Under the pieces are notes generated by a model that was given only the letters and a program-made list of their open reading frames with translations, was not told the origin of the DNA and did no database searches. DNA of 32,000 nt from an uncultured Actinomycetota bacterium. GTDB lineage: Bacteria; Actinomycetota; Actinomycetes; Mycobacteriales; Mycobacteriaceae. Made by a program: the position numbers and the translations under genes. The stretch covers positions 70,080 to 102,079 of the forward strand of contig CAVSLH010000013.1 of assembly GCA_963728815.1 (NCBI GenBank). Direction: 5' to 3'. Shown piece after piece: positions 8,649-23,635 of the stretch (within the stretch, counting starts at the first letter, position 1; every line of letters starts with the position of its first letter).

Positions 8649-10646
8649 ATGTCCGTCCAAGTCGTCAACCAGGATTCCGTGCTCCAACACGCCCTCGACA
8701 TTGTCAGCGAGACGACGCACCGGTTGTGGATCACATCGCCATGGATCACCCAGCGGCCGGCCAGTCTGCTTCTCCGTGACGCTCTGCCCCGTGTGGCGCG
8801 CGGGCAGCTCGACACACGGATCGTGTATCGGGTGAAGGAACCGGCCGACCTGGACATTACGGACCTCGACGCGCTCAAGGCGCTAGAGGACGCGGGTTGC
8901 CTGGTGCGCTACTCCACCCGGCTGCACGCCAAGCTCATTCTGGCCGACAGCGCCGCGCTCGTATCCTCATCGAACCTCACCGCGACCGCCGGCTATGGCC
9001 TGGACGAGGCGGCCGCCTGGCGCAACGAGGAACTCGGTGTCGTCATTCGCAGCGACGATGCGGTTCTTTCCGAGCTTGAGTCACAGTTCGAAGCCATCTG
9101 GTCCTCGGCGACGCGGGTCGACGAAAGCACGATCGGTATCGCGATGGATTTCCCGACGGTTCGTCAGTTCAGCTTTGTCGCCATCCGCGACGTCCGCCTG
9201 GGCGAATATGCGACAGCCCACGACACCGCGGGCAACGTGGTTCTCGGGCGGATCTCTGAAGTAACCGCCTACAACCCGTCGTTTCCTCAAATGAACGAGT
9301 CGATGTGGATCACTCAGGGCTACTCGGGCACAGGGGGTAGCAGCCGCGTGGAAGTGCCGGATCTGCAGTCGTTGTTCTCGCACCCGTCCAAAGAGCACGG
9401 ATTCCTGGTTACGAAGACGTTTTTCGAGCCTGAGTCGGTATTCCGTATCGCACGAGTCGAAGTGCTCAAGCACTATGTAGCTGGCCGCCTGCTCTCCCCC
9501 ACCGTGCCGGTGGCCCCGGGATCCGACGTCTCGCACGCATCTCCTGAACTGCTGCGCCAGCTCCTGGGCGATGGGGACGTCGAGCTCGGCACCATGCTGC
9601 ACCACCCTGACGTACCCGTCGCCTTGCGGTCAGCCGAGTTCTCGAAGCACCTGGCGGTTTTGGGAATGACGGGTTCGGGCAAGTCCAACGCCATCAAGGT
9701 TCTTCTGCATCGCCTCAGCAATGGTCCGCTGTGCGAGGCACTCAGGGTGGTTGTCATCGACACGCACGGCGAATATGCGCCTGTGGCGCAGATGATCTCG
9801 CCGTCTGCTCGGATCGTCGACGTCCGACTACGCCGCAGCGTCCTCGACGACGACGTGGTCCGCGATCTGCTGAGGTTGTCCCGTCGCAACGAGGCACTCC
9901 TGGACAAGCTGGCAGCGGTCGCCGACGGACTGTCACCGGAGCAGGATCTTGAGGAGTTCCTCGCCGCCGTCGAGCTGGAAGCTCCCGATGCCGGCCCCCT
10001 GGCCGAAAAGCTCACCCGGCTGGTGGCCGCCGCGCGAGAGGCGGACGACCTGTGCCTCTGGCCCCACGACAGCGCTGTGATCACCCGCGCCGATAGCGTT
10101 GGCCCTCAACGGCTTGACGAAGCCGGCCTCTACATCCTGAACCTCCGCCACACAACCAGCCTGGAGGAACGATCGGCTAAGGCCGCAGCTGTCATGACCG
10201 ACGTCTTTGAGCACAGCAAGCACACCGGCGGCCAATTTCCGTCGCTCGTCGTGCTCGACGAAGCACAGTACTACGCGCCCGAGCAACAAACAGGGTGGCT
10301 CGCGCGCGCTCGGCCGTCCTTCGACGCCGTGTTTGCGATCGCGTCTGAAGGACGCAAATTCGGTGTGGGGCTTGTGGTGTCGAGCCAGCGCCCGGCGCGC
10401 GTGAACAAAGACGTCCTCAGTCAATGCAACACCCATTTAGTCTTTCGCGTGGCCAACGTTGAGGACCTCTCGGCCCTCGCCGGCAGCTTCGAGGCAGCGA
10501 GTCAGCCGCTGCTGGATGAGCTGCCTGGATTTGACACCGGAGTGTGCGTTGTCGGCGGCACCGCGATCGGCATGCTGACCCGCGTCGAGGTGCCGTTGTT
10601 CGAAAGCGTTGCCGTGGAGAATGATTCGTCGCCGCCGTCGCCGTGA
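8649..10646 (+). CDS. Fusion protein: N-terminal PLD/HKD-family nuclease + HerA/FtsK-type (DUF87) ATPase
   Basis: 665 aa. The HKD motif is LHAKLILADSAALVSSSNLT (His codon 8925, Lys codon 8931, Asp codon 8946). Walker A is LGMTGSGKSNAIK (Lys codon 9681). Walker B is LVVLDEAQYYAP (Asp codon 10257). The HerA-type tail reads GRKFGVGLVVSSQRPARVNKDVLSQCNTHLVFRVAN. The segment between the two domains sits where HerA proteins carry the HAS barrel. Confidence 0.9.
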   Translation: MSVQVVNQDSVLQHALDIVSETTHRLWITSPWITQRPASLLLRDALPRVARGQLDTRIVYRVKEPADLDITDLDALKALEDAGCLVRYSTRLHAKLILADSAALVSSSNLTATAGYGLDEAAAWRNEELGVVIRSDDAVLSELESQFEAIWSSATRVDESTIGIAMDFPTVRQFSFVAIRDVRLGEYATAHDTAGNVVLGRISEVTAYNPSFPQMNESMWITQGYSGTGGSSRVEVPDLQSLFSHPSKEHGFLVTKTFFEPESVFRIARVEVLKHYVAGRLLSPTVPVAPGSDVSHASPELLRQLLGDGDVELGTMLHHPDVPVALRSAEFSKHLAVLGMTGSGKSNAIKVLLHRLSNGPLCEALRVVVIDTHGEYAPVAQMISPSARIVDVRLRRSVLDDDVVRDLLRLSRRNEALLDKLAAVADGLSPEQDLEEFLAAVELEAPDAGPLAEKLTRLVAAAREADDLCLWPHDSAVITRADSVGPQRLDEAGLYILNLRHTTSLEERSAKAAAVMTDVFEHSKHTGGQFPSLVVLDEAQYYAPEQQTGWLARARPSFDAVFAIASEGRKFGVGLVVSSQRPARVNKDVLSQCNTHLVFRVANVEDLSALAGSFEAASQPLLDELPGFDTGVCVVGGTAIGMLTRVEVPLFESVAVENDSSPPSP

Positions 10647-10679
10647 GGACGTTCAGCCCCCTTGCCGTGCAGGACAGCC

Positions 10680-11622
10680 GGCTTATCTCGACGCTGAAGG
10701 CATTCGCCCCTGACGGTGAGCCGATGTAACCTGAGTCTGCTTCATGAGATGCCGTCGCCAAGCTCCGACTGGACGGCACGCCAACCCCACGCTCGTGGGT
10801 GGCTCGGATGACGAAGCGGCCTGGCACCAACCGGTGCGGGCAAGAGCGCCTCCCCATGCGGAGGCCCCACCTTTCGGGAGTATTGCAATGCCTCGGAATC
10901 GTTCCTGCGGGTCGTATGGCCCCGGCCACCTCATGCACTGGATCCAGGGCAAGAAATCGCACGAGGACGGGCAGCCGATCATCAAAGTGAAGGTCGTTGC
11001 CTTTCATGACGACGGACGCGTCGAAATCGAAGGTGACGACCTGAAACTGACGCGGTGGTATCACGACCCTGACCACCTTCGTTCGGCGCTCTGCTTCGGT
11101 GGCCGCGGCGCATGGAAGCCGAAGTATCACGTGTTGTATGTGATCTCGAGCGGCTCGTTCAACTTCGCCACGATGGACGAGGTGGAGCCCTGCGAACCGC
11201 CGATACGCCGGCGATCTACCGAGACCACCAGGCAGTTCATCGAACGGGCGATGCGAAAGAACCACGGCTACACGGTTCCGGCGCCCTGGTTGGCTGACCT
11301 GGATGCCATACCGGACGGCGACATCGGTGAACCGGAGTCCGGGTACCTGGTTGGGATCGAAACTCCCACGGATACAACACTGTTGGAGACATTGCCGCCC
11401 AAACCACGGACGCCAGGACACGGCTGACGTGCCCGAGACAACCAGTCATGGTGTGCAGTACCACGTGCTGCCCGATGACGCCTTAGCCGCGCTGAACATC
11501 CTGCGCGAGGCCGCCGGGCTGGAGCCGCTGTCCTCTCCCGACCACAGTGAACCAGAGGACGCCGACGGCGGCACCCGATCCAAGGGGAAGACCAGCAATG
11601 ACTGAGCGATGGCGTCCGAAGG
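10680..11622 (+). repeat. Direct repeat copy A (943 nt), carrying partner gene X1 and its leader
   Basis: Aligns by eye to 20855-21659. The stretch 10746-10890 is identical to 20922-21066. The CDS differs at about 14 of 534 nt. Copy A has 139 extra nt (11418-11556) relative to copy B. Confidence 0.9.
10888..11427 (+). CDS. Uncharacterised protein X1 downstream of PLD-HerA (paralog of 21064..21642)
   Basis: ATG 10888 is preceded by GGGAG 7 nt upstream. Third-position GC is high and the amino-acid composition looks natural (MPRNRSCGSYGPGHLMHWIQGKKSHEDGQPIIKVKVVAFHDDGRVEIEGDDLKLTRWYHDP...). The long antisense ORF 10417..11421 is Arg/Pro-rich shadow. I recognise no domain. Confidence 0.6.
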   Translation: MPRNRSCGSYGPGHLMHWIQGKKSHEDGQPIIKVKVVAFHDDGRVEIEGDDLKLTRWYHDPDHLRSALCFGGRGAWKPKYHVLYVISSGSFNFATMDEVEPCEPPIRRRSTETTRQFIERAMRKNHGYTVPAPWLADLDAIPDGDIGEPESGYLVGIETPTDTTLLETLPPKPRTPGHG

Positions 11623-11800
11623 AGTTGGGCCACGGCTCGATTGACTAGCAGCATCCGTTTTGGCACCTGGTTGCGACTCCCTGGCCGGGCTGGAGTCTCG
11701 AATCTGAAGAACCGCCGTCGATCAGATCCTGTCTCACCTGATCCGCACCTAAACGCGCATCCCTGGACCCAGAGGACGCAATTGGTCATACTTGTGACTA

Positions 11801-12085
11801 ATGACTGAAGTCAGCTCACTCGCCGAGGCGAAGGCGCACCTGTCGGAGTTGGTGGCCCGTGTCGCCGATCAGCACGAGCGGATCACGGTAACGGTGCGCG
11901 GACGCCCCGCGGCGGTCCTTCTTGCCATCGACGATCTGGAGTCACTCGAGGAAACCATTGCAGTGCTGTCCGACGCGACGGCGCTCCGTGCCCTTGGCGA
12001 GGCCGATGCTGAGCTAGCACGCGGCGAAGGGGAGAACCAGGACGGTCTTGCCGCAGCCATGGAAGCACGCCGAGCTAGGACGTGA
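11801..12085 (+). CDS. relB: Phd/YefM-family antitoxin (RelB-like)
   Basis: 94 aa. The sequence SLAEAKAHLSELVARVADQHERITVTVRGRPAAVLLAIDDLESLEETIAVL is a classic Phd/YefM N-terminal fold and resembles mycobacterial RelB/RelF. It overlaps the downstream toxin start by 4 nt. Confidence 0.9.
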   Translation: MTEVSSLAEAKAHLSELVARVADQHERITVTVRGRPAAVLLAIDDLESLEETIAVLSDATALRALGEADAELARGEGENQDGLAAAMEARRART

Positions 12086-12360
12086 CGGACCGGCGATATG
12101 AGCTGATAATCGCTCCGACTGCGAGAAAACAACTGGCTGAAGAACTTCCCGAATCGGTGGCGTTCGCTGCCTATGAGTTCATCATCGGTCCACTACTCGA
12201 CAATCCTCACCGCGTGGGCAAGCAGCTCCGCCCCCCGTTGCACGACCGCTATAGCGCACGCCGCGGCACCTACCGCGTGCTCTACAGGATCGACGACGAG
12301 CGTCAGCGAGTCACCGTCGTCGGCGTGTTCAGCCGCGCGGACGCATACCGTGCCAAATGA
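12082..12360 (+). CDS. relE: RelE/ParE-family toxin
   Basis: 92 aa. The sequence ...AAYEFIIGPLLDNPHRVGKQLRPPLHDRYSARRGTYRVLYRIDDERQRVTVVGVFSRADAYR is the RelE pattern (PLLxNPHRxGKxL...ARRGxYRVxYxID...V). GTG 12082 overlaps the relB TGA. Confidence 0.9.
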   Translation: MTDRRYELIIAPTARKQLAEELPESVAFAAYEFIIGPLLDNPHRVGKQLRPPLHDRYSARRGTYRVLYRIDDERQRVTVVGVFSRADAYRAK

Positions 12361-12566
12361 CGACAGCAGCCCGCGCGGGAGCATCGGCGTACGCACGCGT
12401 GAGACGTCCAGGAAACCCGCCATCCCGACAGGCCACCGGCAGCCACACGGCATCAAGACCGGACGACCTCGACAGGGACCGGCAGGCAACCAGGCGACCC
12501 AAGACCGTTCGGGGCCGCCGCATAGCCAGGACTTGCTCCTGCCATGTCAATAGCAACGGTTGCTGG

Positions 12567-12974
12567 TCAGACCCGAATGATCGTCAGGTTGGCCGCGCCA
12601 TCGAGAGCGGCGAAGTCGTCGTCCTGGGTGATGACGGGCAGTGCTCGCGATGCCGCGATGGCCGCGATCCACAGATCGTTGATCCGGACCCGCCGACCGG
12701 TCTCGGCGAGATAAATCCGCAGGCGCGCCCACATGCGGGCCGCTTCCTCGTCGACTGGCAGCGTTTCTACGTCCGCAACAGATTCCAGTGTTGCGAGGCG
12801 TTGCGCCCTGATGTCGGAAGTCGTCGCGGCCAGCACGCCGACGTGGAGTTCGGCGAGGGTGACGACGGTGGTGGCGACCTCGTCGGGGATCAGCGCCTCG
12901 TCGAGTTGCCGACCGCTTTCGGTCGCGATGAACACCGAGGTGTCGAGTACTCCGGCCGCCCGCGTCGTGCTCAT
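12567..12974 (-). CDS. vapC: VapC PIN-domain toxin (close to M. tuberculosis VapC5 as I recall it)
   Basis: 135 aa. It has GVLDTSVFIATE (first acidic PIN residue) and RINDLWIAAIAASRALPVITQDDDFAAL (C-terminal PIN acidic residues). There is an ATGA overlap with the upstream antitoxin. Confidence 0.9.
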   Translation of the reverse strand: MSTTRAAGVLDTSVFIATESGRQLDEALIPDEVATTVVTLAELHVGVLAATTSDIRAQRLATLESVADVETLPVDEEAARMWARLRIYLAETGRRVRINDLWIAAIAASRALPVITQDDDFAALDGAANLTIIRV

Positions 12975-13231
12975 CAGATCGGCCCGAGATCCTCGGTTGT
13001 GTCGCCCGCGAGCGCCGCGAGGTCCTCGCGTAACCCGGGATCGGCTTGAGCGCGGCGCAATCGCGAGAGGAACTCTGTTTTGCTCAGCCAGCGCCGGCGC
13101 TGCGGGCGAACCGCCGTGAGAACCGCGACAGGTCGGCCGTTGACAGTGATGGTGACGTCCTCCCCTTCCCGCACGCGCCGAAGCACTCCCGCGGTATCGT
13201 TGCGCAGCTCACGAGACGCCACTTCAGACAT
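12974..13231 (-). CDS. vapB: VapB antitoxin (Phd/YefM-type fold)
   Basis: 85 aa from ATG 13231: MSEVASRELRNDTAGVLRRVREGEDVTITVNGRPVAVLTAV... The longer ORF up to 13474 has an implausible Arg/Cys-rich N-terminus. Confidence 0.9.
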   Translation of the reverse strand: MSEVASRELRNDTAGVLRRVREGEDVTITVNGRPVAVLTAVRPQRRRWLSKTEFLSRLRRAQADPGLREDLAALAGDTTEDLGPI

Positions 13232-13258
13232 GCTACGAGCGTAGCGCAAATGTAGCGC
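13232..13258. promoter_or_regulatory. Operator-like repeats immediately upstream of vapB
   Basis: GCTAC (13232-13236) and GTAGC (13241-13245) form an inverted repeat. GTAGCGC is directly repeated at 13241-13247 and 13252-13258, an 11-bp period, and the array abuts the vapB start codon. Confidence 0.4.
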
Positions 13259-13342
13259 CCGTACGACGCCACCGGTGACCTCGCTGCAGCACCGGCACGC
13301 AGGGCGGCATCCTGCCACGGACTGTTGGCGTGCCGTTGTTGA

Positions 13343-13603
13343 ATCGTCATCCTCGGTGACGGCGGCTACCGCGGCATCGACACCATCACCACACCGGCCC
13401 GCGACAACACCGGGCGCATCATCCACGACGACCTCTACCGAACCCACCGCCGCATCCGCGCCCGCGTCGAACACGTCATCGCCCGGCTAAAAGACTGGCA
13501 GATCCTGCGGCGATGTCGCCACCGCGGCCAGGCCAAAAACCACAGCCTCCACATCATCACCGGGCTGTGGAACCTCAAAACCACAGCCGCACAAGCTGTT
13601 TAG
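13343..13603 (+). pseudogene. C-terminal fragment of a DDE transposase (DDE_Tnp_4 / IS5-Harbinger-like)
   Basis: The frame opens straight after TGA 13340-13342 with no start codon: ...ILGDGGYRGIDTITTPARDNTGRIIHDDLYRTHRRIRARVEHVIARLKDWQILRRCRHRG...ITGLWNL, then TAG 13601-13603. The D-GY-G ... R..vEh.ia.LK.w.iL pattern is the C-terminal catalytic part of this transposase family. The N-terminal two thirds are missing. Confidence 0.7.
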
Positions 13604-13794
13604 CAGATATATAACCATTACGGATCAACTTAGCTACGCCCGTCAACATCCCGCCGGGTGACCTCATCCGGTTCTTTTCACCGGGCCGAACACGCCCTTC
13701 AGCGCACCGCTGGTGGCCTCGTCACCTCGCGGCGCCGAGGGATCGACGGGCGTTCAGTGCGGGGACTGTCTGCGAATACTGGGCAAACAGCGTG

Positions 13795-13863
13795 GTTGAC
13801 AAAGTTGACGATGGCAGGTTGACGTGCTTGACAATAGGTAGTTGACTGTCTTGACGAGGCCTT
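13795..13863 (+). promoter_or_regulatory. Three tandem 23-bp units, each with two (G)TTGAC half-sites: candidate operator/promoter of the Xre-RES operon
   Basis: The units are GTTGACAAAGTTGACGATGGCAG (13795-13817), GTTGACGTGCTTGACAATAGGTA (13818-13840) and GTTGACTGTCTTGACGAGGCCTT (13841-13863). TTGAC starts at 13796, 13805, 13819, 13828, 13842 and 13851. The array ends 9 nt before the GGGAGAGGAAAG RBS and 26 nt before ATG 13890. Confidence 0.6.
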
Positions 13864-13889
13864 GCAACCGATGGGAGAGGAAAGCGACG

Positions 13890-14417
13890 ATGACGGACCT
13901 TGCCTCATTCGAGCGCCAGATCATGCGATTGGTCGGCCTGAGGGTCCATGACCGACTCCGGAGGGCCAGCGAAGCGCAGCTCGGTCCGGAAGCATTCGGC
14001 GACCCGGAGCAGATTGCCGACGCCATGGTGGCGGCACTTCCCTTGGGGCACGTCTTCGACGAGATATCGGGGCCGTTCTACGACACATCGGGCCTTAGCC
14101 GATGGCTGGGGATCTCACGTCAGGCCCTGCACCAGAAGGTGGCACGGCATGCGATTCTGGCGTGTCCCCTCGATGATGGCAGCGTCGTCTACCCGACGTG
14201 GCAATTCCTCGACAGCGGCGCGACCATCCCGTCGTTGGCCGAGGTGCTCGCCACGCTGGCGGAGGGTACCGACGACGCGTGGATGATCGCGCTGTGGATG
14301 CGGGCGCCAAGCGAAAACCTCGACGGCGAACGTCCCAGTGAATGGCTGCGCAAGGGCCGTGACCCGCAACGCGTGATTGCGATGGCACGACAGGTGGCGT
14401 CGAGCTGGGCCGCATGA
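13890..14417 (+). CDS. Xre/MbcA/ParS-type antitoxin (HTH + DUF2384 toxin-binding domain)
   Basis: ATG 13890 follows a strong RBS. The HTH-like segment is LSRWLGISRQALHQKVARH. The C-terminus WMRAPSENLDGERPSEWLRKGRDPQRVIAMARQV fits the DUF2384 pattern (W...pn..L.G..P.e.l......v). There is an ATGA overlap with the RES gene. Confidence 0.8.
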   Translation: MTDLASFERQIMRLVGLRVHDRLRRASEAQLGPEAFGDPEQIADAMVAALPLGHVFDEISGPFYDTSGLSRWLGISRQALHQKVARHAILACPLDDGSVVYPTWQFLDSGATIPSLAEVLATLAEGTDDAWMIALWMRAPSENLDGERPSEWLRKGRDPQRVIAMARQVASSWAA

Positions 14418-15046
14418 GCGATTCCCGACAGCGCCCAGCACTCGGTCTGCCGCCGCCCGACGTATCACGTTTCCCTCGATCGCGACTTCTGCCCAGCGTG
14501 CCGTTGCACCGGGCGCACACTGCCGGCAAGCCGCCGTGGTGGTTCTCCTCCGATTTGTCGGGTCGTTTCGACCTGATCCAGCCCAACGGGACTTGTTATC
14601 TCGCAACGGATGTCGCCATCGCACTGCGGGAGCGGTTCGGTCATGACCTGGTTCGCCAGGGCGTGGTCACATTCCAGGCGGCGGCTCGAACACACGTGTC
14701 GAGACTGCAGGTTCCGTCGGAGCGCTGGCTCGCGAACACCTGCTCGCCGGCAGCGGCAAACTTCGGCATGACCCGTGAAATCGGGACGTGCCCGTCGTAC
14801 GACATTCCGCAGGCGTGGGCGGCGGCCTTCTTCGGCGGCGGCAAGCATTCGGGCATCCGCTACCAAACCCGGTTCAGCACCGGAGCGACGCCCAACGCGG
14901 CGGCTCTGTTTGACGCCTCGGGGAAACACGAGTGGCCTACTGACCCGCACCCGGTTCATGGTGTCCAAGCGTGCACCGGGGTCGGCATCACGGTTGCGCA
15001 CCGGCCGACCAGCCGACAGGTACGCACGGTGCAGCCGCCGGGATGA
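14414..15046 (+). CDS. RES-domain toxin (MbcT/ParT-like NAD-targeting family)
   Basis: 210 aa. The sequences SGRFDLIQPNGTCYLATDVAIALRERFGH (Arg and Glu regions) and GIRYQTRFSTGATPNAAALFD (Ser region) carry the R-E-S signature. Confidence 0.85.
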   Translation: MSDSRQRPALGLPPPDVSRFPRSRLLPSVPLHRAHTAGKPPWWFSSDLSGRFDLIQPNGTCYLATDVAIALRERFGHDLVRQGVVTFQAAARTHVSRLQVPSERWLANTCSPAAANFGMTREIGTCPSYDIPQAWAAAFFGGGKHSGIRYQTRFSTGATPNAAALFDASGKHEWPTDPHPVHGVQACTGVGITVAHRPTSRQVRTVQPPG

Positions 15047-15059
15047 GCCAGCGGGTACG

Positions 15060-15545
15060 TTGACGTTTTCGAAATCGCCTCTGTCATTAGACCCGGACGA
15101 CGTCATCTTGAATTTATGGACGGCGGTGCTCGACGTCGATGCCGTAACACGCGTCGACTTCGACGACTGCGCCAGGTACGGGCTGACGCCCGACGAGCTC
15201 GTCGGCGACGATTACACCCCTACGCAGGGATTGGCTGATGTGGTTCGAGACAGCGGAGCAAGCGCAATTATTGTGCCATCGGCCGCGCTGCCCGGAACCC
15301 ACAACCTGATCTTGTTTGGCGCACGAGTCCTGAATCCATTTCTCAGCTCACCGCTCACGCCTGAAGAGGTGCCGACCGGGCACCTTACCGACGGAGCGCG
15401 AGCCCCGGCCGAGGTGGCGCCGCACGTCCGCTGGTTCGGCACTCCGCACAAGGCGGCGGAACAGTGGAAAACCACCGGCAACTACGACCTATTCGACGAT
15501 CCAACCGCGACGCGTTGGTTGACTTCGACGCCGGGCCGGAGTTGA
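15060..15545 (+). pseudogene. Second RES-domain gene lacking the N-terminal Arg/Glu region (5'-truncated remnant)
   Basis: ...LNLWTAVLDVDAVTRVDFDDCARYGLTPDELVGDDYTPTQGLADVVRDSGASAIIVPSAALPGTHNLILFGARV aligns, from memory, to the C-terminal two thirds of MbcT-like RES proteins. Upstream, the frame is Arg-rich nonsense overlapping gene 14414..15046. The only candidate start is TTG 15060. Confidence 0.5.
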
Positions 15546-15936
15546 TGACCACTCTGTGTGGGTCTGCGAGCGCCTCGTCGGCTTCTGTTGCCGCGCGCTG
15601 AAATTGGTGACGACACCGTCACTTTCGATGCACACGAGGGACGACGTGGTTTGTCGTCATGACGACAGCGTGATCGTCGTGATGATGGCCGCGCCGCGGG
15701 TCGCCGCTGACCACGCTGCTTTCTCCCAGTGGGACGTCAGGCTGCGTTGTGAATCGACACAAACGCCGTGTCAACATCTGCACCCGAGCCGAGACGGTCG
15801 CGCTCGACACTGGGTTCGTCGTTGTATTCGGCAACCACCCAGGGCGACGATGCGGGTAACCCAATCGAACGGGGGCCGCTGAATAGAGCACCAGGCACGG
15901 CCATGAGGTCACCGGACATCGTATCGGGCCTGTCTC

Positions 15937-16356
15937 TTAAGTTTTCAAAGTCGGGGTAAGCGCCGCGCGCAGAATGTCCGCATCGCTTGTTGCTAGGGTG
16001 AGGTTTCGCCGAGCGGCCTGGGCGATGAGCACCCGGTCGAAAGGGTCTTTGTGTTCCCAAGGCAGGCGGCCGGCCAGGATGGCATCGCCCGCGTCGATCG
16101 CCAAGTCGGTAGCGGTCATGTCGGCAATGATGTCCGACCACGCTGACAACAGCGGCTCTCCATCCAGGCGACCCAGCCGGGTCTTGATTGCGATCTCCCA
16201 TGCCGACGCTGCCGAAACCATGATCTCGGTACTCGGATCGCGGAGCTGCTGACGCGCCGAGTCGGAAACCTTCTCCGGCGCACTGACCAGCCACAGCAGG
16301 GCATTTGTGTCCAGGAGAACAGCCAGCGGCGTCGACGTGGGCCGCTGGGCAGTCAT
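15937..16356 (-). CDS. vapC: VapC-type PIN-domain toxin
   Basis: 139 aa from ATG 16356. It has VLLDTNALLWL, SAASAWEIAIKTRLGRL and HKDPFDRVLIAQAARRNLTLATSD, the PIN family with a DPFDR(L/V)LIAQA motif. There is an ATGA overlap with the antitoxin. Confidence 0.85.
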   Translation of the reverse strand: MTAQRPTSTPLAVLLDTNALLWLVSAPEKVSDSARQQLRDPSTEIMVSAASAWEIAIKTRLGRLDGEPLLSAWSDIIADMTATDLAIDAGDAILAGRLPWEHKDPFDRVLIAQAARRNLTLATSDADILRAALTPTLKT

Positions 16357-16586
16357 GAGTTGCCTTCCCACGCAGCGATTTCGGCTTCGGGAAGCGGTTC
16401 GTCGAAGTTGTCGGGCACGATGAGCGCCGGCAGCTGACCGAATTTCCGCGGCCGGGGATGCGCTGGCGCGAGCACAGCCACGGCACGTCCATGGTTGGTG
16501 ATGGTCACCGACACCCCGGTCCGCTCGACCTCTGCCAGGAGCGCATTGAGCTTTGCCTTGGCCTCGGTGCTCGTGACCGTCTTCAT
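16353..16586 (-). CDS. vapB: Phd/YefM-type antitoxin
   Basis: 77 aa: MKTVTSTEAKAKLNALLAEVERTGVSVTITNHGRAVAVLAP... Confidence 0.85.
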   Translation of the reverse strand: MKTVTSTEAKAKLNALLAEVERTGVSVTITNHGRAVAVLAPAHPRPRKFGQLPALIVPDNFDEPLPEAEIAAWEGNS

Positions 16587-16615
16587 GCGTCCAGGATAAC
16601 GCGGTCAGCCCATCC

Positions 16616-16643
16616 GATCTAGTGGGACTAGTCGGACTAGATC
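16616..16643. promoter_or_regulatory. Nested 28-bp palindrome in the divergent vapBC / SNF2 promoter region
   Basis: The sequence is GATCTAGT-GGG-ACTAGT-CGG-ACTAGATC. The outer 8-bp arms (16616-16623 and 16636-16643) are exact reverse complements, and the centre ACTAGT (16627-16632) is self-complementary. It lies 30 nt upstream of the antitoxin ATG (16586) and is followed by TATAGG. Confidence 0.45.
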
Positions 16644-16812
16644 GTATAGGCAGGTGCATACAGAGAGTACAGCGCCGACATTAGGCACACGCAGGCGGAA
16701 CTTTCGTCACGGCAGACTCCCAAACCTCATCTCCACCACTTTCGCGTGTCGCGCGGCATGGTTGGGCAGTCTTGTCGGACCGGGTCGTTACGGTGCGGGC
16801 GTGCAATCGCTG

Positions 16813-19800
16813 ATGTATCCATCGATCGACCTTGCGAGCGCGCTCGGGCTGCTTGGCGCCGACACCTATCGTCGTGGCCTGGCCTATGCGCGGGAAGGAC
16901 GGGTGCTGCGTTGCCTGTGGGACCCGGACGCTCACAACCTTGTCGGCAATGTTCGCGGTAGCCAAGGCCGCACCTACGCCACAACGGTGCAGCTTTTGCC
17001 GGTAGACATCGATAGCTGGAGTGTCGAAAGCGGGTTCTGCAGCTGCCCGGTGCACGTGAACTGCAAGCATGTCGTGGCAATCGTCATCGCCGCCGCGGGG
17101 GCCACAAAGATGCGTGCCCAACATACGCCGCCTCCGCCAGCTCCAACGCCATGGCGGCAGTCGCTGGAGGCGCTGCTTCCCCCGGCCTCGACGAACGATC
17201 GCATCGGGACACCACTGGCGATCGAGCTGAACCTGTCGGTGAGCGGGCCGTCGCCGACTCTCGACGCGCGCCTCGTGCGGCCCGGAAAGCGCGGCGGCTG
17301 GGTGGCCGGCGATCTGAGCTGGGGCAAGCTGCACATGCTGCGCCACTGCGGTTATCCCGACGCTCAGCTTCGGCTGCTGCAGGAGCTCTATGCGACCCAC
17401 CGGGCGTCGAGCTCGAATTCGACTGGCTACTACAGCTATTCGTACCGGGGTTATACCTACGGCGACGTGAAGACGATCTCGCTGCTGGGATTTGAATCCC
17501 CGCAGCTGTGGCCGCTGCTGGACGAAGCGCGCCGAGTCGGGGTGCAGCTGGTGCAGGCGCGGCCACAACAGGATGTGCCGACGTACGCCACGGCGCAGTT
17601 GTGCCTGGACATCACGATCGACGAGACGGGCGATCTCACCGTCGAGCCCGTGCTTCGGGTCGACGGCGCCGCAGCACGGCCCGTGGCGTTCATTGGATCG
17701 TCAGGTCATGGCGTGGTGTATGTCGACGGCGGGTTGCGGCTCGCCCGACTGGACAAGCCGGCGCCTGAGGCGTTGCAGCGCATGACACTCAGTGATGAGC
17801 CGCTGGTCATACCCGCGGACGAGGCGCCGCGGTTCGCCGCGGAGTACTACCCCAGGTTGCGCCACATCGCGGCCGTCACGTCGTCGGACGAGTCGTTCAC
17901 GCCGCCAGCGATCGTCGGGCCGACGCTGGTCCTGCGGGCCGACTACCAGGCCGAGCACCAGCTCGAGTTGACATGGGAATGGGCATACCGCTTAGGCGAC
18001 AACGACTTTCGCGCACCGGTCGGCACATCGGAGTATGTCGCTTGCCGCGACCTGGAAGCGGAGAAGACACTCGCCTCGAGCATCGAAGCGCCGCTGGAGC
18101 AATTCGGGCTCCGCGCCGCCGACGGCACGCTCATCACCGAGGCGCGACTTTCCGGCCTGGAGACAATGCGATTCGCCACCGAAATTCAACCGCTGCTCGC
18201 CGAACTTCCCGATGTCGCGCTGGAGGTGATCGGCGACCCAGTGGACTACCGGGAGGCGGGTGGCTCCCTCGTCATCGCGGTGACGACGGACGCGGTGGCC
18301 GGCGAGACAGACTGGTTCGACCTGGGTGTCACGATCAGCATTGAAGGCAACCAGGTTCCGTTTGTCAGCGTGTTCACCGCGCTCGCGTCCGGGCAGTCGC
18401 ACCTGCTGCTTGCCGACGGCGCCTACTTCGCGCTGGACAAGCCGGAGCTGGTGAAGCTGCGCCAGCTCATCGAAGAGGCCCGCGCACTCACCGATGCTGA
18501 AGAGGGGCCACCCCGGATCAGCCGATTCCAGGTCGGGTTGTTCGACGAACTGGCCGAGGTCGGAGTCGTGACGCGGCAGGCCGACGAGTGGCGGCGCCAA
18601 GTCGACGGGCTGCGCGCGCTGCAGGGTCTGGAACCGGCGGCGGTGCCAACCAGCCTGCGTGCTCAGCTAAGGCCGTATCAGGCCGACGGGTTCTCGTGGC
18701 TGGCGACCCTGCACACCCACGGGCTCGGTGGGATCCTCGCCGACGACATGGGCCTGGGCAAGACCGTCCAGTCGCTGACGTTGATCTGCCATGTCCGTCA
18801 ACAGGATCCGGGCATGGCACCATTCCTGGTGGTTGCGCCGGCCAGTGTGGTGGCGAACTGGGCCAGCGAGGCCGCACGGTTCGCGCCTGAGCTGTCGGTC
18901 GTGCCGATCTCGGACACGCTGCGCCGCGCCGGCGCCGACCTCGACGAGCTGGCAGCGGGTGCCCACATCGTGGTCACCTCGTACACGCTGTTTCGGCTGG
19001 ACTTCGACGCCCACGCCGCCCGAACGTGGTCCGGGCTGATCCTGGACGAAGCCCAATACGTGAAGAATCATCACGCCAAGACCTACCAGTGCGCACGCAG
19101 GTTGGCCGCACCGTTCAAGCTGGCGATCACTGGCACACCGATGGAGAACAATCTCATGGAGCTGTGGTCGCTGCTGTCGATCGCCGCCCCCGGGTTGTTC
19201 CCCAACCCGACGAAGTTCGCCGACTTCTTCGCCAAGCCCATCGAGAAGACCGGCGACCCCGAGCTTTTGGCCCTGTTCCGCCGCCGCATCAAGCCGTTGG
19301 TCAAGCGCCGCACCAAGGAGCACGTGGCCGCCGAGCTGCCAGCCAAGCAAGAGCAGGTCCTCGATATCGAGCTGCCGCCGCGGCACCGCGCCCTCTACAA
19401 CAAGCGACTGCAACGAGAGCGGCAGAAGGTGCTCGGCCTGCTCGATGACATGCAGCGTAACCGGTTCACGATCCTCAAGTCTTTGACCGTGCTGCGACAG
19501 ATGGCGCTGCATCCCGGGCTCGTCGACCCCGCACACGACACGCTGGCGAGCGCGAAGATCGACGTGCTCGCCGAGTATCTCCTCGACGTCGTCGACGGTG
19601 CCCACCGCGCGCTCGTGTTCAGTCAGTTCACCCGTTTCCTCGGCCGGGTCCGCGATCGCCTCGACACCGAAGGAATCGACTACTGCTATCTCGATGGGCG
19701 AACCCGTAACCGTGCAACAGTGGTACAGCGGTTCAAGGAAGGAGATGCACCGGTTTTCCTGATCAGCCTCAAGGCCGGTGGGTTCGGGCTGAACCTCACC

Positions 19801-20052
19801 GAGGCCGACTACTGCTTTCTGCTCGACCCGTGGTGGAATCCGGCCACCGAGGCCCAGGCCATCGACCGCACACACCGCATCGGCCAGACCCGCAACGTAA
19901 TGGCGTACCGGCTCATTGCCCACGACACCATCGAGGACAAGGTAATGGCCCTCAACGCCCGCAAAGCCAAGCTGTTTGCCAGTGTTATCGACGACGGTAA
20001 CGCGTTCGGCTCCGCCCTCACCGCCGACGACATCCGCGGACTGCTCGCCTAA
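16813..20052 (+). CDS. SNF2-family helicase with N-terminal SWIM zinc finger (HelZ-like architecture)
   Basis: The SWIM motif is CSCPVHVNCKHVVAIV (about 17038-17085). SNF2 motifs are LADDMGLGKTVQS, LILDEAQYVKN, AITGTPMENNLMELWSL, LVFSQFTRFL, FLISLKAGGFGLNLTEADYCFLLDPWWNPATEAQAIDRTHRIGQ. ATG 16813 is the preferred start; the ORF is open from 16654. Confidence 0.9.
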   Translation: MYPSIDLASALGLLGADTYRRGLAYAREGRVLRCLWDPDAHNLVGNVRGSQGRTYATTVQLLPVDIDSWSVESGFCSCPVHVNCKHVVAIVIAAAGATKMRAQHTPPPPAPTPWRQSLEALLPPASTNDRIGTPLAIELNLSVSGPSPTLDARLVRPGKRGGWVAGDLSWGKLHMLRHCGYPDAQLRLLQELYATHRASSSNSTGYYSYSYRGYTYGDVKTISLLGFESPQLWPLLDEARRVGVQLVQARPQQDVPTYATAQLCLDITIDETGDLTVEPVLRVDGAAARPVAFIGSSGHGVVYVDGGLRLARLDKPAPEALQRMTLSDEPLVIPADEAPRFAAEYYPRLRHIAAVTSSDESFTPPAIVGPTLVLRADYQAEHQLELTWEWAYRLGDNDFRAPVGTSEYVACRDLEAEKTLASSIEAPLEQFGLRAADGTLITEARLSGLETMRFATEIQPLLAELPDVALEVIGDPVDYREAGGSLVIAVTTDAVAGETDWFDLGVTISIEGNQVPFVSVFTALASGQSHLLLADGAYFALDKPELVKLRQLIEEARALTDAEEGPPRISRFQVGLFDELAEVGVVTRQADEWRRQVDGLRALQGLEPAAVPTSLRAQLRPYQADGFSWLATLHTHGLGGILADDMGLGKTVQSLTLICHVRQQDPGMAPFLVVAPASVVANWASEAARFAPELSVVPISDTLRRAGADLDELAAGAHIVVTSYTLFRLDFDAHAARTWSGLILDEAQYVKNHHAKTYQCARRLAAPFKLAITGTPMENNLMELWSLLSIAAPGLFPNPTKFADFFAKPIEKTGDPELLALFRRRIKPLVKRRTKEHVAAELPAKQEQVLDIELPPRHRALYNKRLQRERQKVLGLLDDMQRNRFTILKSLTVLRQMALHPGLVDPAHDTLASAKIDVLAEYLLDVVDGAHRALVFSQFTRFLGRVRDRLDTEGIDYCYLDGRTRNRATVVQRFKEGDAPVFLISLKAGGFGLNLTEADYCFLLDPWWNPATEAQAIDRTHRIGQTRNVMAYRLIAHDTIEDKVMALNARKAKLFASVIDDGNAFGSALTADDIRGLLA

Positions 20053-20073
20053 GCGGACAACCGGGCGGCATCG

Positions 20074-20625
20074 CTATTGCTTGCCCAGCGCATCCAAGTC
20101 GAGGCGCAATGGAACGGGAGTGCTGGTCGTAAACGTGCCGGTGACCGCGGGTGATTCCTGGTAACCGAACTCGCCCGTTAGGCGCAGTGCGGTAAGCGTC
20201 ACGGGCGGGCCAAGCTCCACGATCCAGTAGTGCTCGATCGTGGCCTCGGCGTATTCGGACCGCTTGGTGACGGTATCGGTCCGTCTGGAGCCTGGCGAAA
20301 CCACTTCGATCGCCACCAGCACATCCGGTCCGCCCAACCTTCGTGCCGAGCCCTCTTTACGGGTGATCACGACATCCGGAATGCGGACCGTTGGCGGGTA
20401 AGCGGCATCGACACAGACCTCGAACTCGATAATCGCTTCGAGATCGTCGGGCAGTTGATCATCGAGTTGCTTCGCGATGCGGAACGCGGCCCGCGCGTGC
20501 GGCCGCAACAGCCTCGGCGTCACGATGAGCACGCCCTCCTGCAACTCGATGTGGGCGCCGTTGTCCTCCGGGAGCGCGTCCCAGTCCTCAATGGACAGCA
20601 GCTTCGGCAGGTGAACGCTCGTCAT
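20074..20625 (-). CDS. Uma2-family (DUF820) PD-(D/E)xK endonuclease
   Basis: 183 aa with RIPDVVITRKEG, VAIEVVSPGSRRTD and KRSEYAEATIEHYWIVEL, the canonical Uma2 D...E.xSP...K..Y...G..eYW motifs. A strong RBS (GGAGGAGGCGGAAAGGCG) precedes the ATG. Confidence 0.85.
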   Translation of the reverse strand: MTSVHLPKLLSIEDWDALPEDNGAHIELQEGVLIVTPRLLRPHARAAFRIAKQLDDQLPDDLEAIIEFEVCVDAAYPPTVRIPDVVITRKEGSARRLGGPDVLVAIEVVSPGSRRTDTVTKRSEYAEATIEHYWIVELGPPVTLTALRLTGEFGYQESPAVTGTFTTSTPVPLRLDLDALGKQ

Positions 20626-20854
20626 CGCCTTTCCGCCTCCTCCGAACGTCGCGCTTTCGAGTCAAGCGTAGACGCCGCAATCGTCGACACAGTTGATCAA
20701 TGAGCCCGCGTGGATGGCCACACGACGGCTGTACCGATACCTCCCACACCGCTCGCAGCTGATCGGATGGTGTGCTCTGGATGGAGCCGAAGCGGAAGGC
20801 GAAGCCGGTGCGGCCCGCGATCAGGCGCACGCACCCACTCCGCCCAGGAGATCT

Positions 20855-21659
20855 GGCTCATCTCGACGCTGAAGGCGTTCGTCCCTGTCGGTCAGCCGAT
20901 GTAGGTTTGGACCTGCTTCACGAGATGCCGTCGCCAAGCTCCGACTGGACGGCACGCCAACCCCACGCTCGTGGGTGGCTCGGATGACGAAGCGGCCTGG
21001 CACCAACCGGTGCGGGCAAGAGCGCCTCCCCATGCGGAGGCCCCACCTTTCGGGAGTATTGCAATGCCTCGGAATCGTTCCTGCGGGTCGTATGGCCCCG
21101 GCCACCTCATGCACTGGATCCAGGGCAAAAAATCGCACGAGGACGGGCAGCCGATCATCAAAGTGAAGGTCGTTGCCGTTCATGACGACGGACGCGTCGA
21201 AATCGAAGGTGACGACCTGAAACTGACGCGGTGGTATCACGACCCTGACCACCTTCGTTCGGCGCTCTGCTTCGGTGGGCGCGGCGCATGGAAGCCGAAG
21301 TATCACGTGTTGTACGTGATCTCGAGCGGCTCGTTCAACTTCGCCACGCTGGACGAGGTGGAGCCCTGCACACCGCCGATACGCCGGCGACCGACCGAGA
21401 CCACCAGGCAGTTCATCGAACGGGCGATGCGAGAGAACCACGGCTACACGGTTCCGGCGCACTGGTTGGCTGACCTGGATGCCATACCGGACGGCGACAC
21501 CGGTGAACCGGAATCCGGGTACCTGGTTGGGATCGAAACTCCCACGGATACAACGCTGTTGGAGACATTGCCGCCCAAACCACGGACGCCAGGAGACGCC
21601 GACGGCGGCACGCGATCCGACGGGAAGGCCAGCAACGACTGAGCGATCGCGTCCGAAGG
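20855..21659 (+). repeat. Direct repeat copy B (805 nt), carrying X2 and its leader
   Basis: Same orientation as copy A (10680-11622). The two are separated by 9232 bp. See copy A for identity details. Confidence 0.9.
21064..21642 (+). CDS. Uncharacterised protein X2 (paralog of X1, uninterrupted 192-aa form)
   Basis: Seven amino-acid replacements versus X1 over the shared 178 aa. It continues in frame into the tail ...PKPRTPGDADGGTRSDGKASND. Confidence 0.6.
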   Translation: MPRNRSCGSYGPGHLMHWIQGKKSHEDGQPIIKVKVVAVHDDGRVEIEGDDLKLTRWYHDPDHLRSALCFGGRGAWKPKYHVLYVISSGSFNFATLDEVEPCTPPIRRRPTETTRQFIERAMRENHGYTVPAHWLADLDAIPDGDTGEPESGYLVGIETPTDTTLLETLPPKPRTPGDADGGTRSDGKASND

Positions 21660-21754
21660 CATTTGGCCTTTCACGTCGCCAACGTTGGGGATCTGTCGGC
21701 GCTCGCAGGGAGCTTCGAGGCGGCGAGTCAACCGCTGCTCGATGAGTTGCCTGA
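21660..21754 (+). pseudogene. 95-nt remnant of a second herA-like gene (equivalent to 10434-10528 of the PLD-HerA gene)
   Basis: It translates as HLAFHVANVGDLSALAGSFEAASQPLLDELPE, versus HLVFRVANVEDLSALAGSFEAASQPLLDELPG in the intact gene. About 14 mismatches in 93 nt by eye. It starts directly at the end of repeat copy B and loses similarity after 21754. Confidence 0.65.
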
Positions 21755-21917
21755 GTGCTTGTGTATCGCCAGTCTATGACCGGACGCTCCGTGATGGCCA
21801 GCAGCTCCGATAGCAGCGGCGAGCGCCAAATCCGATGGCAGCGAGGGCGATTAGACCGCCGCTGAGTATCGGGAGTGGCGCCGGCGGTTGGTCGTCGTTT
21901 CTCTGGATTTGAGCCGA

Positions 21918-22352
21918 TCAGATCGGGACGAACCCAAGCTCTTCGGCGACCTGGCGTTGTGCTTCGTCGCGCGAGGCGAACGCCCGCGGCTCGCCGGGCT
22001 CCAGCAGCGGCGGAACGACGATCGCCGCGACTGCCAGATGCCAGGCGTCCATCGCACGCAGCGCATGCTGGCGGACGAGTTGCAGGGCGTGCTGCTCAAC
22101 CTGGTCTTGTGGCGCACCGAGCACGATCACCGGGCCCGCGAGGTCGCCGTCCAGCAGCGCGAGCAAGCCCTTCTCATCACCGCGGCCCGCGCGCGCGGCC
22201 CGCACCAGCGCGCCCGAGACCTCGATCCTCGTCCACGTCCCGGTGACGGTTGCAATGTCTGGGTCAGTTAGCAGCGCGCTTGCCTCCTGGTGCCCGTCCT
22301 CATCGACAAGGTATGCACGGGCCAGAACCGAGGAGTCCAGGTAGGCGATCAC
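21918..22352 (-). CDS. vapC: VapC PIN-domain toxin
   Basis: 144 aa from GTG 22352. It begins MIAYLDSSVLARAYL and later has ALRAMDAWHLAVAA. There is a GTGA overlap with the upstream RHH gene. Confidence 0.85.
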   Translation of the reverse strand: MIAYLDSSVLARAYLVDEDGHQEASALLTDPDIATVTGTWTRIEVSGALVRAARAGRGDEKGLLALLDGDLAGPVIVLGAPQDQVEQHALQLVRQHALRAMDAWHLAVAAIVVPPLLEPGEPRAFASRDEAQRQVAEELGFVPI

Positions 22353-22645
22353 GGCCGCTCGCGCTCTTGCGCGAGCAACTGGTCGATCTGCGGACCGAGG
22401 CCGCGGGTCGACTCGATGATTCGCCGCCGTCGGTCCGCACTCACTGAGCGCGCGTTCACGCGGCGTAACGTGCCCGCGGCGGCCGCCGCGGCGCGCAACT
22501 GCGCGCGCCGATCGCCACTGTCGGCGTCGGCGGCCGCGTCGAGGATCTCGGTTGCGACCGCGTTCAGGCTGCGCCCCTCGCGCGCAGCACGCGCGACCAA
22601 CCGGCGGTGAATATCCTCGGGCACCCGGAGCAGAAGCTGCTTCAC
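22349..22645 (-). CDS. vapB: Ribbon-helix-helix antitoxin (VapB)
   Basis: GTG 22645 gives VKQLLLRVPEDIHRRLVARAAREGRSLNAVATEILDAA, a canonical RHH. The longer ORF up to 22768 adds an implausible N-terminus. Confidence 0.75.
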   Translation of the reverse strand: MKQLLLRVPEDIHRRLVARAAREGRSLNAVATEILDAAADADSGDRRAQLRAAAAAAGTLRRVNARSVSADRRRRIIESTRGLGPQIDQLLAQERERP

Positions 22646-22865
22646 GCCACCAATGCTATCACTGCCATGCTGGTGATAGCATGCATCCGCGACGATGGCG
22701 CGCAGGGATAGCGTACGGACGCGCCATATGAGACAGGAACGCGGCGCGGGTATCCCTCGCTTGCTCATTGCGGCCAGCCAGCAAGTAGCCGCGCCATCCG
22801 CGTGTCAGCGTCGCGAATGCGGTTACGCCGGCTACCCATATCGTCGTTTCGTCCGCCATGGCAGC

Positions 22866-23369
22866 TCAATCACCGCCGAGAACCACGCGCGTGTCCTTGA
22901 TCAGCAGCATCAGATGCAGCGGGTCGGTCGGCGAGTGCTCGAAATCAAAGTGTGCGTAGAACTCACGAGCATTGTCGTTGAGCGCATGAATCAGCAGAAC
23001 GCGAGCTCCGATAAGGTCAGCTGCCTCGACGGAGCGCATGATCGCATCCCGCAGCAGGTCCTTCCCGAGGCCAAGTCCCTTGTCCTTGCGGTCGACGGCC
23101 AACCTGGACAACAGAATCGCCGGCACTGGCTCAGGCATGTTGCGACGCACCTTGCCCGGCGCGTCGCGATGCTGGATCGAGGCGACGGCTAGCGCGTAAT
23201 ACCCAACAACCCGGGCGCCGCGGCAGGTGACATAACAGCGCGACGCACCCTGCAGATGATTCGAGAGCGCCCTTGTCTGCAGATACCTATCCAGACTCGG
23301 CTCACCGCTGTCGAAACTGGCGGTCTCGTCGTCCTCACGGATCGGTCGCGGTCTGCTGTACCCGCTCAC
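22866..23369 (-). CDS. tacT: GNAT acetyltransferase toxin (TacT-type)
   Basis: 167 aa. LSRLAVDRKDKGLGLGKDLLRDAI is the acetyl-CoA motif A, followed by RVLLIHALNDNAREFYAHFDFE. It overlaps by 4 nt the upstream DUF1778 gene, its usual partner. Confidence 0.9.
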   Translation of the reverse strand: MSGYSRPRPIREDDETASFDSGEPSLDRYLQTRALSNHLQGASRCYVTCRGARVVGYYALAVASIQHRDAPGKVRRNMPEPVPAILLSRLAVDRKDKGLGLGKDLLRDAIMRSVEAADLIGARVLLIHALNDNAREFYAHFDFEHSPTDPLHLMLLIKDTRVVLGGD

Positions 23370-23635
23370 TCGGCGTCAAAAATTGGCGCTTGTGCCAACA
23401 GCTTTTCCAGTCGCGGCTTATGCGATACCGGACGGTCCAGCACTGCCAGGAACTCCGTCCACGCGGCATCGTCGAGCAAAAATAGCCGCCGGTCAGCGAG
23501 AACATCTCGCGCATGCGCCAGTGCCGCCGTCACGGTGAAGTTGGTGAGGTCGGTCCCCTCCGCCTCGGCGGCGCGGCGGATAAGTTCGTCCTGCTCCGAA
23601 GTCAGGCGAACCGCAATACGTGAGTCTTTCGCCAT
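23366..23635 (-). CDS. tacA: DUF1778 antitoxin (TacA-type, RHH)
   Basis: 89 aa: IAVRLTSEQDELIRRAAEAEGTDLTNFTVTAALAHARDVLADRRLFLLDDAAWTEFLAVLD matches the DUF1778 pattern. Confidence 0.9.
   Translation of the reverse strand: MAKDSRIAVRLTSEQDELIRRAAEAEGTDLTNFTVTAALAHARDVLADRRLFLLDDAAWTEFLAVLDRPVSHKPRLEKLLAQAPIFDAE

Follow-up and report, generated by a model that had tools for sequence, protein, structure and literature searches.

Riboswitch–gene X repeats around a toxin–antitoxin block in an uncultured Mycobacterium: probable recombination scars in a plastic island

How does a genome come to carry two closely similar, same-orientation copies of one gene on either side of a block of toxin–antitoxin (TA) and defence genes, with the second copy running straight into a piece of a gene that lies upstream of the first? 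The question is raised by a stretch of 32,000 nucleotides (nt), hereafter the window, from an uncultured Actinomycetota bacterium of the Mycobacteriaceae (GenBank assembly GCA_963728815.1, contig CAVSLH010000013.1, positions 70,080 to 102,079, forward strand), in which a gene that we call X is repeated, as copies A and B, downstream of a gene for a PLD-nuclease/HerA-ATPase fusion (herA). The answer that we favour, with a confidence that stops well short of certainty, is that these repeats are scars of recombination in a plastic island, in which the core of X has been kept alike by gene conversion. Both repeats would be paralogous cassettes made up of a SAM-IV riboswitch, responsive to S-adenosylmethionine (SAM), gene X, and a short 3′ tail. 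As an architecture, the repeats amount to the ordinary plasticity of mycobacterial TA/defence islands, here in an uncultured soil Mycobacterium, and the more interesting part is the riboswitch–X family that resides in such islands, which is a moderately interesting lead. Below, a number prefixed with w is a coordinate in the window, and L-numbers designate loci fetched for comparison.

Repeats, riboswitch leaders and the herA junction

The elements on which the argument depends are the following, with lengths of proteins in amino acids (aa), coding sequence abbreviated as CDS and open reading frame as ORF:

8649–10646, + strand: PLD-nuclease/HerA-ATPase fusion gene, 665 aa (Pfam PLDc_2 and DUF87), left anchor of the variable island
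10434–10527, + strand: internal herA segment, aa 596–627, with a second, diverged copy at 21660–21753
10656–10739, + strand: left arm of repeat A, intergenic between herA and riboswitch, 81% identical to 20831–20903
10740–10852, + strand: SAM-IV riboswitch aptamer, copy A (Rfam RF00634, 79.0 bits)
10888–11427, + strand: gene X copy A, 179 aa, C-terminus shortened by a 136-nt segment
11423–11558, + strand: A-only segment, which supplies X_A with its stop codon and creates a called ORF of 58 aa (11429–11605)
11559–11631, + strand: tail of unit A, former X C-terminal coding sequence and 3′ flank, 86% identical to 21589–21668
11632–20830, no strand: cargo of about 9.2 kb (Pfam; called genes on the source contigs)
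20831–20915, + strand: left arm of repeat B, with homology to the intergenic sequence next to herA but no herA before it
20916–21028, + strand: SAM-IV riboswitch aptamer, copy B (RF00634, 78.4 bits)
21064–21642, + strand: gene X copy B, 192 aa, the usual length among close homologues
21643–21668, + strand: truncated tail of unit B and junction, breakpoint between 21659 and 21668
21660–21753, + strand: herA relic (aa 596–627), 94 nt, 85.1% identical to 10434–10527 (E 4e-24), stopping abruptly at 21753

Direct repeats of gene X and its upstream sequence had been noticed in a sequence-only reading of the window, and they are real: the self-alignment proposed there, run with BLASTN and a repeat finder, returned three matches and fixed the boundaries. 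The repeat core pairs 10670–11422 in copy A with 20845–21598 in copy B (754 nt, 95.9%, one gap, E 0); a weaker left edge (10656–10728 against 20831–20903, 73 nt, 81%) and a right extension (11552–11631 against 21589–21668, 86%) carry the outer limits to 10656–11631 and 20831–21668, and all copies lie on the + strand in the same orientation. Riboswitch and CDS together are 97.7% identical over 685 nt, and the first 534 nt of the CDS, for which about 14 differences had been counted earlier, hold 15 on recount. Copy A has an extra 136–139 nt (11423–11558) that copy B lacks, and this is why X_A stops early. The segment, also found in relatives L012, L013, L016, L035, and L040, is bounded by the imperfect short repeats CCAGGAC / CCAGAGGAC, which suggest that the short form arose through a small deletion; the last 16 residues of the 58-aa ORF are the old C-terminus of X. 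Short X proteins of the 179-aa type occur in other genomes as well (P0042 and P0026). The exact X_B protein is encoded on four public contigs, and no record of the exact X_A protein was found.

The repeated upstream sequence, described earlier simply as 200 nt of it, is indeed part of the repeat; what had been missed is its identity, a full-length SAM-IV riboswitch in both copies. Each aptamer covers positions 1–116 of the 116-position RF00634 model and scores far above its gathering score of 38 bits, and the X start codons (10888 and 21064) lie about 35 nt 3′ of the aptamer, with a GGGAG Shine-Dalgarno sequence 7 nt before the ATG. Such spacing, with GGGAG just after the aptamer, is expected for translational control, and we predict a translational OFF-switch of the usual kind upstream of X. 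Promoter and terminator scans around both copies returned nothing informative, and the minimum free energy fold of the leader (z = -0.4) was uninformative on the expression platform.

The herA-like stretch of about 95 nt that had been reported directly after copy B also holds up as real and significant. In all other copies, unit A and the relatives included, the X tail is canonical (...GAAGGCGTTGAGCCAAGGCTCGATTGAC...) and runs on to about w11707; copy B reads ...GAAGG, then CATTTGGCCTTTCAC..., where it switches to herA-like sequence (at the junction, ...GAAGGCGTTGAGCC... against ...GAAGGCATTTGGCC... in the comparison with the canonical tail). The X tail at 21659 is thus joined head to tail to sequence equivalent to 10434, with 1–3 nt of unambiguous microhomology, in what appears to be a non-homologous (illegitimate) join that truncates unit B. 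The relic lacks both the 3′ end of herA and a following X. BLAST of all fetched loci recovered this junction from no contigs but those of the window's own strain group, and an exact-pattern scan of Joint Genome Institute (JGI) metagenomes gave 0 matches.

The window comes from metagenome assemblies, so that a collapsed or chimeric repeat has to be considered as a source of the whole layout. An exact-protein look-up matched the window on the European Nucleotide Archive contig ERZ25039458:contig_58913 (354 kb, 99.98%), and near-identical contigs (99.6–99.9%) come from two other samples; two of the three span the full structure from copy A through cargo and copy B to the herA fragment, and the third begins inside the Uma2 gene yet holds copy B, junction, and relic. 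Since the same layout recurs in three independently assembled contigs from different samples, with strain-level differences between them, and since the copies are 4% different and have different flanks, which makes them unambiguous to assemble, an artefact is scarcely credible.

Gene conversion and a mosaic island

The similarity of copies A and B changes sharply along the unit:

Intergenic arm: 14 differences in 73 nt, 81%
Riboswitch: 1 difference in 116 nt, 99%
First 149 nt of the CDS: 2 differences in 149 nt, 99%
Remaining CDS: 96–97%
Tail: 86%

This patchiness is one of three lines of evidence which, taken together, support gene conversion between the X copies, as had been proposed from the sequence alone. 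The second is that copies cluster within genomes: the two window copies group together (97.7%), as do both copies of L006 (98.3%), with no clustering by position, and five derived states common to the two window copies are absent from 11 close relatives. The third comes from L050, whose copy A carries the B allele at 11 of the 13 sites between 11103 and 11379 at which A and B differ, four of these alleles (11103G, 11195C, 11285A, and 11337A) being derived and B-specific, with copy B invariant among strains; these alleles are direct evidence that sequence has passed from B to A. Compared with the window, L050 is about 1% different across 11103–15864 and about 0.1% elsewhere. The left edge of this recombinant tract lies inside X_A, which fits a role of X as homology for recombination in the population. 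Two single-nucleotide polymorphisms in X_A between the window and L053 (11002 and 11173) were also considered as evidence of conversion and dropped, since polarisation makes them window-specific derived states. Selection has a share in the pattern: about 7 of the 15 CDS differences are non-synonymous, a rough count that suggests moderate purifying selection, and purifying selection on the riboswitch would account for part of the 99% identity there.

Concerted evolution of bacterial paralogues by gene conversion is familiar, for example from duplicated tuf genes. Here too the core is far more alike than the flanks, copies cluster within the genome, and alleles move between copies; the window differs in that its unit is a riboswitch with an uncharacterised gene, bracketing a defence/TA block, and in that the B-to-A direction is seen in one strain only.

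Relatives carry blocks of the window at 88–99% identity and in differing orders, as in these loci:

L006: GNAT – SNF2 – ... – RES′ – herA fragment (from w10453) – riboswitch–X – tail – RelBE – SEC-C block (w23762–27470) – riboswitch–X – tail – amidase – w30464
L005 and L030: herA – Xre/RES′ – herA fragment (w10453–10682) directly joined to SEC-C block (w23747–27470) – about 230 nt – riboswitch–X from w10710 – tail – w30464
L001: full herA – Xre/RES′ – fragment (from w10453) with X – amidase ... – fragment (from w9920) with X – RelBE

Judged from these alignments, the island downstream of herA is strongly mosaic. The block boundaries w23747, w27470, and w30464 recur beside different neighbours, and riboswitch–X cassettes and herA 3′ fragments turn up repeatedly where blocks meet; no motif common to the boundaries came out of a search for one, and no integrase is present among the called genes of the source contigs. 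The herA 3′ pieces of the clade have at least four independent left breakpoints:

RES′/w10453: identical junction sequence in L001, L005, L006, L030, and L061 (a JGI contig)
Xre-RES/w10088: L011
w9920: L001 and L002
X-tail/w10434: the window strains

In L001 and L005 the Xre/RES′ block sits between direct herA duplications of about 160 nt (w10453–10614), with the full-length herA having a different extreme 3′ end and the displaced fragment keeping the window-type end. The gene itself can be damaged: herA of L005 (988–2393) is internally deleted and lacks about aa 381–509, and that of L013 (7070–7999) is cut to aa 1–52 and fused directly to a riboswitch–X cassette. The many independent breakpoints and the 160-nt duplication around Xre/RES′ show that duplicative and illegitimate joins at herA recur in this clade. 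The relic of the window, left of the SEC-C block at w23747, lies where L005, L030, and L061 have a herA fragment, which in all three adjoins w23747 directly, and it starts 19 nt further 5′ than the relatives' fragments (10434 instead of 10453), so that the left junctions are independent.

How the layout may have arisen

On the account that we consider probable, the island would have been rebuilt through recombination between lineages, with blocks gained, swapped, and lost: herA or the X cassette would provide homology at one end of an incoming block and an illegitimate join would form at the other, leaving extra or truncated copies beside the new block, of which copy B and the 94-nt herA relic would be examples. 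The X-tail/herA junction would then be a non-homologous join with minimal microhomology and no proof of a neat tandem array. After the duplication, the riboswitch and the core of the CDS would have been homogenised by intragenomic gene conversion, aided by purifying selection on the riboswitch, as the unit edges and the non-functional herA relic drifted to 81–86%. Among known mechanisms, homology-facilitated illegitimate recombination (one-sided homologous insertion of foreign DNA) and the Ku-LigD end joining of mycobacteria would come closest, to judge from the architecture: homologous sequence lies on one side of an inserted block, and the junction on its other side has almost no microhomology. 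As to the order and mechanism of the events, we infer either an insertion anchored by homology whose distal end was joined illegitimately, or a deletion between units in series, and three histories fit the order of elements. Most of the second copy may have been lost after a large tandem duplication of w10434–21659; a donor segment anchored in herA may have joined illegitimately on its right at position 10434 of the recipient herA, the resident 3′ end becoming the relic, after an analogous earlier event whose join fell at intergenic position 10656 and whose remnant would be copy B; or a deletion may have occurred between two units already in series. The relic could equally be a displaced or a deleted resident herA 3′ end.

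Several points weigh against this account. None of the searched loci represents an intermediate, or resembles an ancestor, that shares the junction and from which the order of events could be read, and the relatives are all contigs assembled from metagenomes. With 83–90% identity, the relic is about as far from one as from another herA copy examined in the clade, copies that are 84–95% alike among themselves, and it therefore singles out no source, be it resident, donor, or in situ duplicate. Searches revealed no recombinase, boundary motif, or direct sign of one-sided recombination, and the identity of the core could in part be owed to purifying selection alone.

The sequence-only reading had proposed instead an ancestral tandem array of units, each consisting of a herA 3′ part and X, that was later disrupted. 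With the riboswitch included, such an array would have formed in situ by unequal crossing-over or replication slippage and been disrupted by cargo insertion and deletions, with the X-tail/herA join as the original duplication junction. The head-to-tail topology on which the proposal relied is real, serial units of this kind do exist in relatives (in L001, a fragment from w10453 with X and then one from w9920 with X; also in L006), and the first of the histories above, a large duplication minus most of its second copy, would yield the observed order. What fails is the order of elements, which is wrong for a unit–junction–unit arrangement beside the parent: a simple array predicts herA–X1–tail/fragment...X2–tail–RelBE, whereas the window has herA–X_A–tail–RelBE–cargo–X_B–tail/fragment, in which X_A continues into tail and RelBE, as in L001, L006, L011, and L013, and the junction follows the distal copy B. 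More events, or another kind of event, are thus needed than a simple tandem array provides. The relic, moreover, is 15% diverged, which is more than the herA copies of the whole clade differ from one another (88–95% identity), yet no relative carries the junction; and at the place that it occupies, left of the SEC-C block, relatives carry a herA fragment with another breakpoint. We regard the array as unlikely, and a head-to-tail junction alone as no proof of one.

Could the repeats instead bound a discrete mobile or excisable element, similar to a composite transposon or an island looped out by RecA, whose cargo would travel as one piece? Repeats of about 0.8 kb that share their orientation and are 96% identical do make adequate substrates for RecA, as had been pointed out earlier, and cargo blocks occur at other positions in relatives. 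Yet every strain-group contig reaching the region keeps the cargo: the comparison with related genomes that was proposed to reveal a cargo-less variant found none, including among contigs encoding the exact HerA or X_B protein, so that the repeats stand as potential substrates with no deletion variant among these contigs. Nor was the whole cargo found as a unit elsewhere, relatives sharing sub-blocks only; searches of Pfam, NCBIfam, PHROGs, and PADLOC gave X no signature of a transposase or recombinase; and unlike in a composite transposon, the repeats show no transposase, terminal inverted repeats, target-site duplications, or shared boundary motif. An integron-like cassette array fares no better, with no integrase among the called genes and no motif recurring at block boundaries. 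A mobile element of this kind is highly improbable in our judgement. Orphan 3′ fragments are well known downstream of rhs/cdiA genes, as are displaced gene 3′ ends at island integration sites, and herA might by analogy belong to a functional cassette system in which silent 3′ fragments are stored with X and recombined into the expressed gene, changing its C-terminus or partner. Some relatives do have a full-length herA followed by its own 3′ fragments next to inserted blocks, each fragment before an X gene, and the alternative extreme 3′ end of herA in L001 and L005, where the block is flanked by the 160-nt duplication, points the same way. The fragments, however, show 83–95% identity to the expressed gene across the region that they share with it, and none has a hypervariable C-terminal domain; the loci have no variable toxin domain, cognate immunity logic, integrase, or att site; the fragment start points are scattered; herA is itself often simply degraded (L005, L011, L013); the window's relic is devoid of 3′ end and following X; and X occurs without herA in most genomes, as more distant herA homologues do without X. 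We give this proposal a very slight chance. If recombination scars are indeed what the window preserves, it offers a worked example of how short conserved cassettes and gene ends may act as recombination homology, duplicate, and then be homogenised by conversion.

The gene X family, the cargo and neighbouring genes

Gene X belongs to an orphan, uncharacterised protein family, almost always with a SAM riboswitch upstream. Its homologues in M. fragae, M. kyorinense, M. celatum, Mycolicibacterium thermoresistibile, and many soil metagenome-assembled genomes are labelled only as hypothetical proteins; X has no match in Pfam, PADLOC, NCBIfam, or PHROGs, and a profile search of PDB sequences gave none. 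An AlphaFold2 model (predicted local distance difference test score 82, residues 10–140 above 90) shows a small beta-barrel with helices, for which Foldseek searches of PDB and BFVD gave nothing of significance (best E 0.09 and 0.015, respectively). Conserved residues include C7, H14, H17, W57, H59, W76, and C102, which makes a metal site possible.

Of the 59 X starts in the loci fetched, 49 are preceded within 300 nt by a SAM-IV riboswitch on the same strand. The others are mostly five loci in which the aptamer is set apart from X, together with partial hits; in those five (L003/L004, 7676–9960; L009; L010; L028) a 2.1-kb segment, in which an acyl-CoA dehydrogenase gene lies in the opposite orientation, separates riboswitch from X, and about 21–25 nt of the aptamer 3′ hairpin (GGCACCAACCGGTG...CAAG) are duplicated on both sides of it. 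SAM-IV (Rfam) still precedes X at 43–52% protein identity, including in Gordonia (43%), and X homologues of 27–28% identity in Acidimicrobiaceae metagenome-assembled genomes have SAM-I (RF00162) in its place, with matches (L048, 9866–9954; L049, 9552–9640) of 46–47 bits, just over the gathering score of 44.4. The link between riboswitch and X is old and robust, and the presence of two riboswitch classes before one protein family argues that X expression is genuinely tied to SAM.

In Actinomycetales, SAM-IV riboswitches precede sulfur and methionine genes, such as that for the O-acetylhomoserine sulfhydrylase MAV_4315 of M. avium (PMC3774663), and SAM-IV has been counted in 16 Mycolicibacterium prophages, the genes not being named (PMC8190616); the literature surveyed holds no link of SAM-IV to the X family, anti-phage defence, or ADP-ribosylglycohydrolase (ARH). 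The window's copies resemble known SAM-IV riboswitches in being full-length and high-scoring and in their spacing and Shine-Dalgarno placement; they differ in that the gene downstream is not one of methionine or SAM metabolism, belonging rather to an orphan family of TA/defence islands and ARH operons, and in that the riboswitch–gene unit is duplicated within 10 kb. The neighbourhoods of X are not those of methionine metabolism. In M. fragae the neighbours are type I restriction-modification genes and DUF4238; in L064 they are VapBC pairs and large helicase-nucleases; Gordonia has an SMC-like ATPase there; and M. celatum and M. thermoresistibile have an ARH-DSPc gene, a protein of 210 aa, and a metallophosphoesterase. 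In M. celatum X overlaps the start of the ARH-DSPc gene, and in M. thermoresistibile it adjoins ARH-DSPc, NUDIX-NrtR, and the metallophosphoesterase (loci L031, 9998–11991, and L066). Extra SAM-IV copies lie upstream of an Ank–76-aa protein–ARH operon in L001 (13924–14035, − strand), L002, L011, L013, and L015. Most X loci have no herA, and distant herA homologues (57–66% identity) have no X within 6 kb, so that X is not an obligate partner of HerA.

The family, with SAM riboswitches of two classes across Actinomycetota and a place in defence/TA islands or beside ARH genes, suggests a mycobacterial SAM-IV regulon wider than sulfur metabolism, and the SAM level offers a testable handle on this uncharacterised family. 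One speculative idea, to which we attach a low probability, is that X acts as an accessory effector in stress or defence and that its translation is set free by a drop in cellular SAM, brought about for instance by methionine starvation or by an enzyme with which a phage degrades SAM. In that case the riboswitch would be the sensor of a defence-island gene, and not of a metabolic one, and the duplicated cassettes beside PLD-HerA, RES toxins, and ARH operons would belong to the same circuitry.

The window's HerA matches PADLOC HerA models at 1e-42 to 1e-19 (best 4.6e-42); against NCBIfam HerA_antiphage it scores 99.7 bits with a cut-off of 800, and other NCBIfam HerA models are likewise far under their cut-offs. 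The SIR2-HerA and DUF4297-HerA anti-phage systems have a SIR2 or DUF4297 effector partner; the effector here is an N-terminal PLD domain fused to HerA. The cargo and the interval beyond the relic hold these genes (Pfam):

11801–12360: Phd/ParE pair (RelBE), cargo
12567–13231, − strand: PIN/Phd (VapBC), cargo
13890–15046: Xre-like/RES, cargo
15126–15545: truncated RES, cargo
15937–16586, − strand: PIN/Phd (VapBC), cargo
16654–20052: SWIM-SNF2 helicase, cargo
20074–20625, − strand: Uma2, cargo
21754–23746, − strand: PIN/RHH (VapBC) and GNAT/TacA (TacAT) TA pairs, between herA relic and SEC-C block

All the cargo genes listed in the sequence-only reading are thereby confirmed by Pfam except the transposase remnant at 13232–13880, which finds no support: no ORF there has a Pfam match, and none resembles the two transposases compared. 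The truncated RES gene is 97–99% identical to RES′ at the herA fragment in L001 (1739–2167), L005, L006, L030, and L061, as against 90–95% in the surrounding blocks, which suggests a recent exchange of the RES′ block. Elsewhere in the window, 26675–27398 holds a small ORF with a CdiA_C toxin domain (136 aa; Pfam on the source contigs), with no CdiA/Rhs body upstream within the window, followed by an overlapping 107-aa ORF that is possibly an immunity protein. An IS110-family transposase (DEDD_Tnp_IS110 and Transposase_20) lies at 3521–4621 (− strand), 4 kb upstream of herA, and an EndoU-like ORF at about 2086–2640 (− strand). A 50-nt inverted repeat (92%; 6982–7031 and 25025–25074) encodes the SEC-C metal-binding motif in two genes, a TPR/SEC-C protein at 6010–7074 (+ strand) and an 860-aa SEC-C protein at 23848–26430 (− strand).

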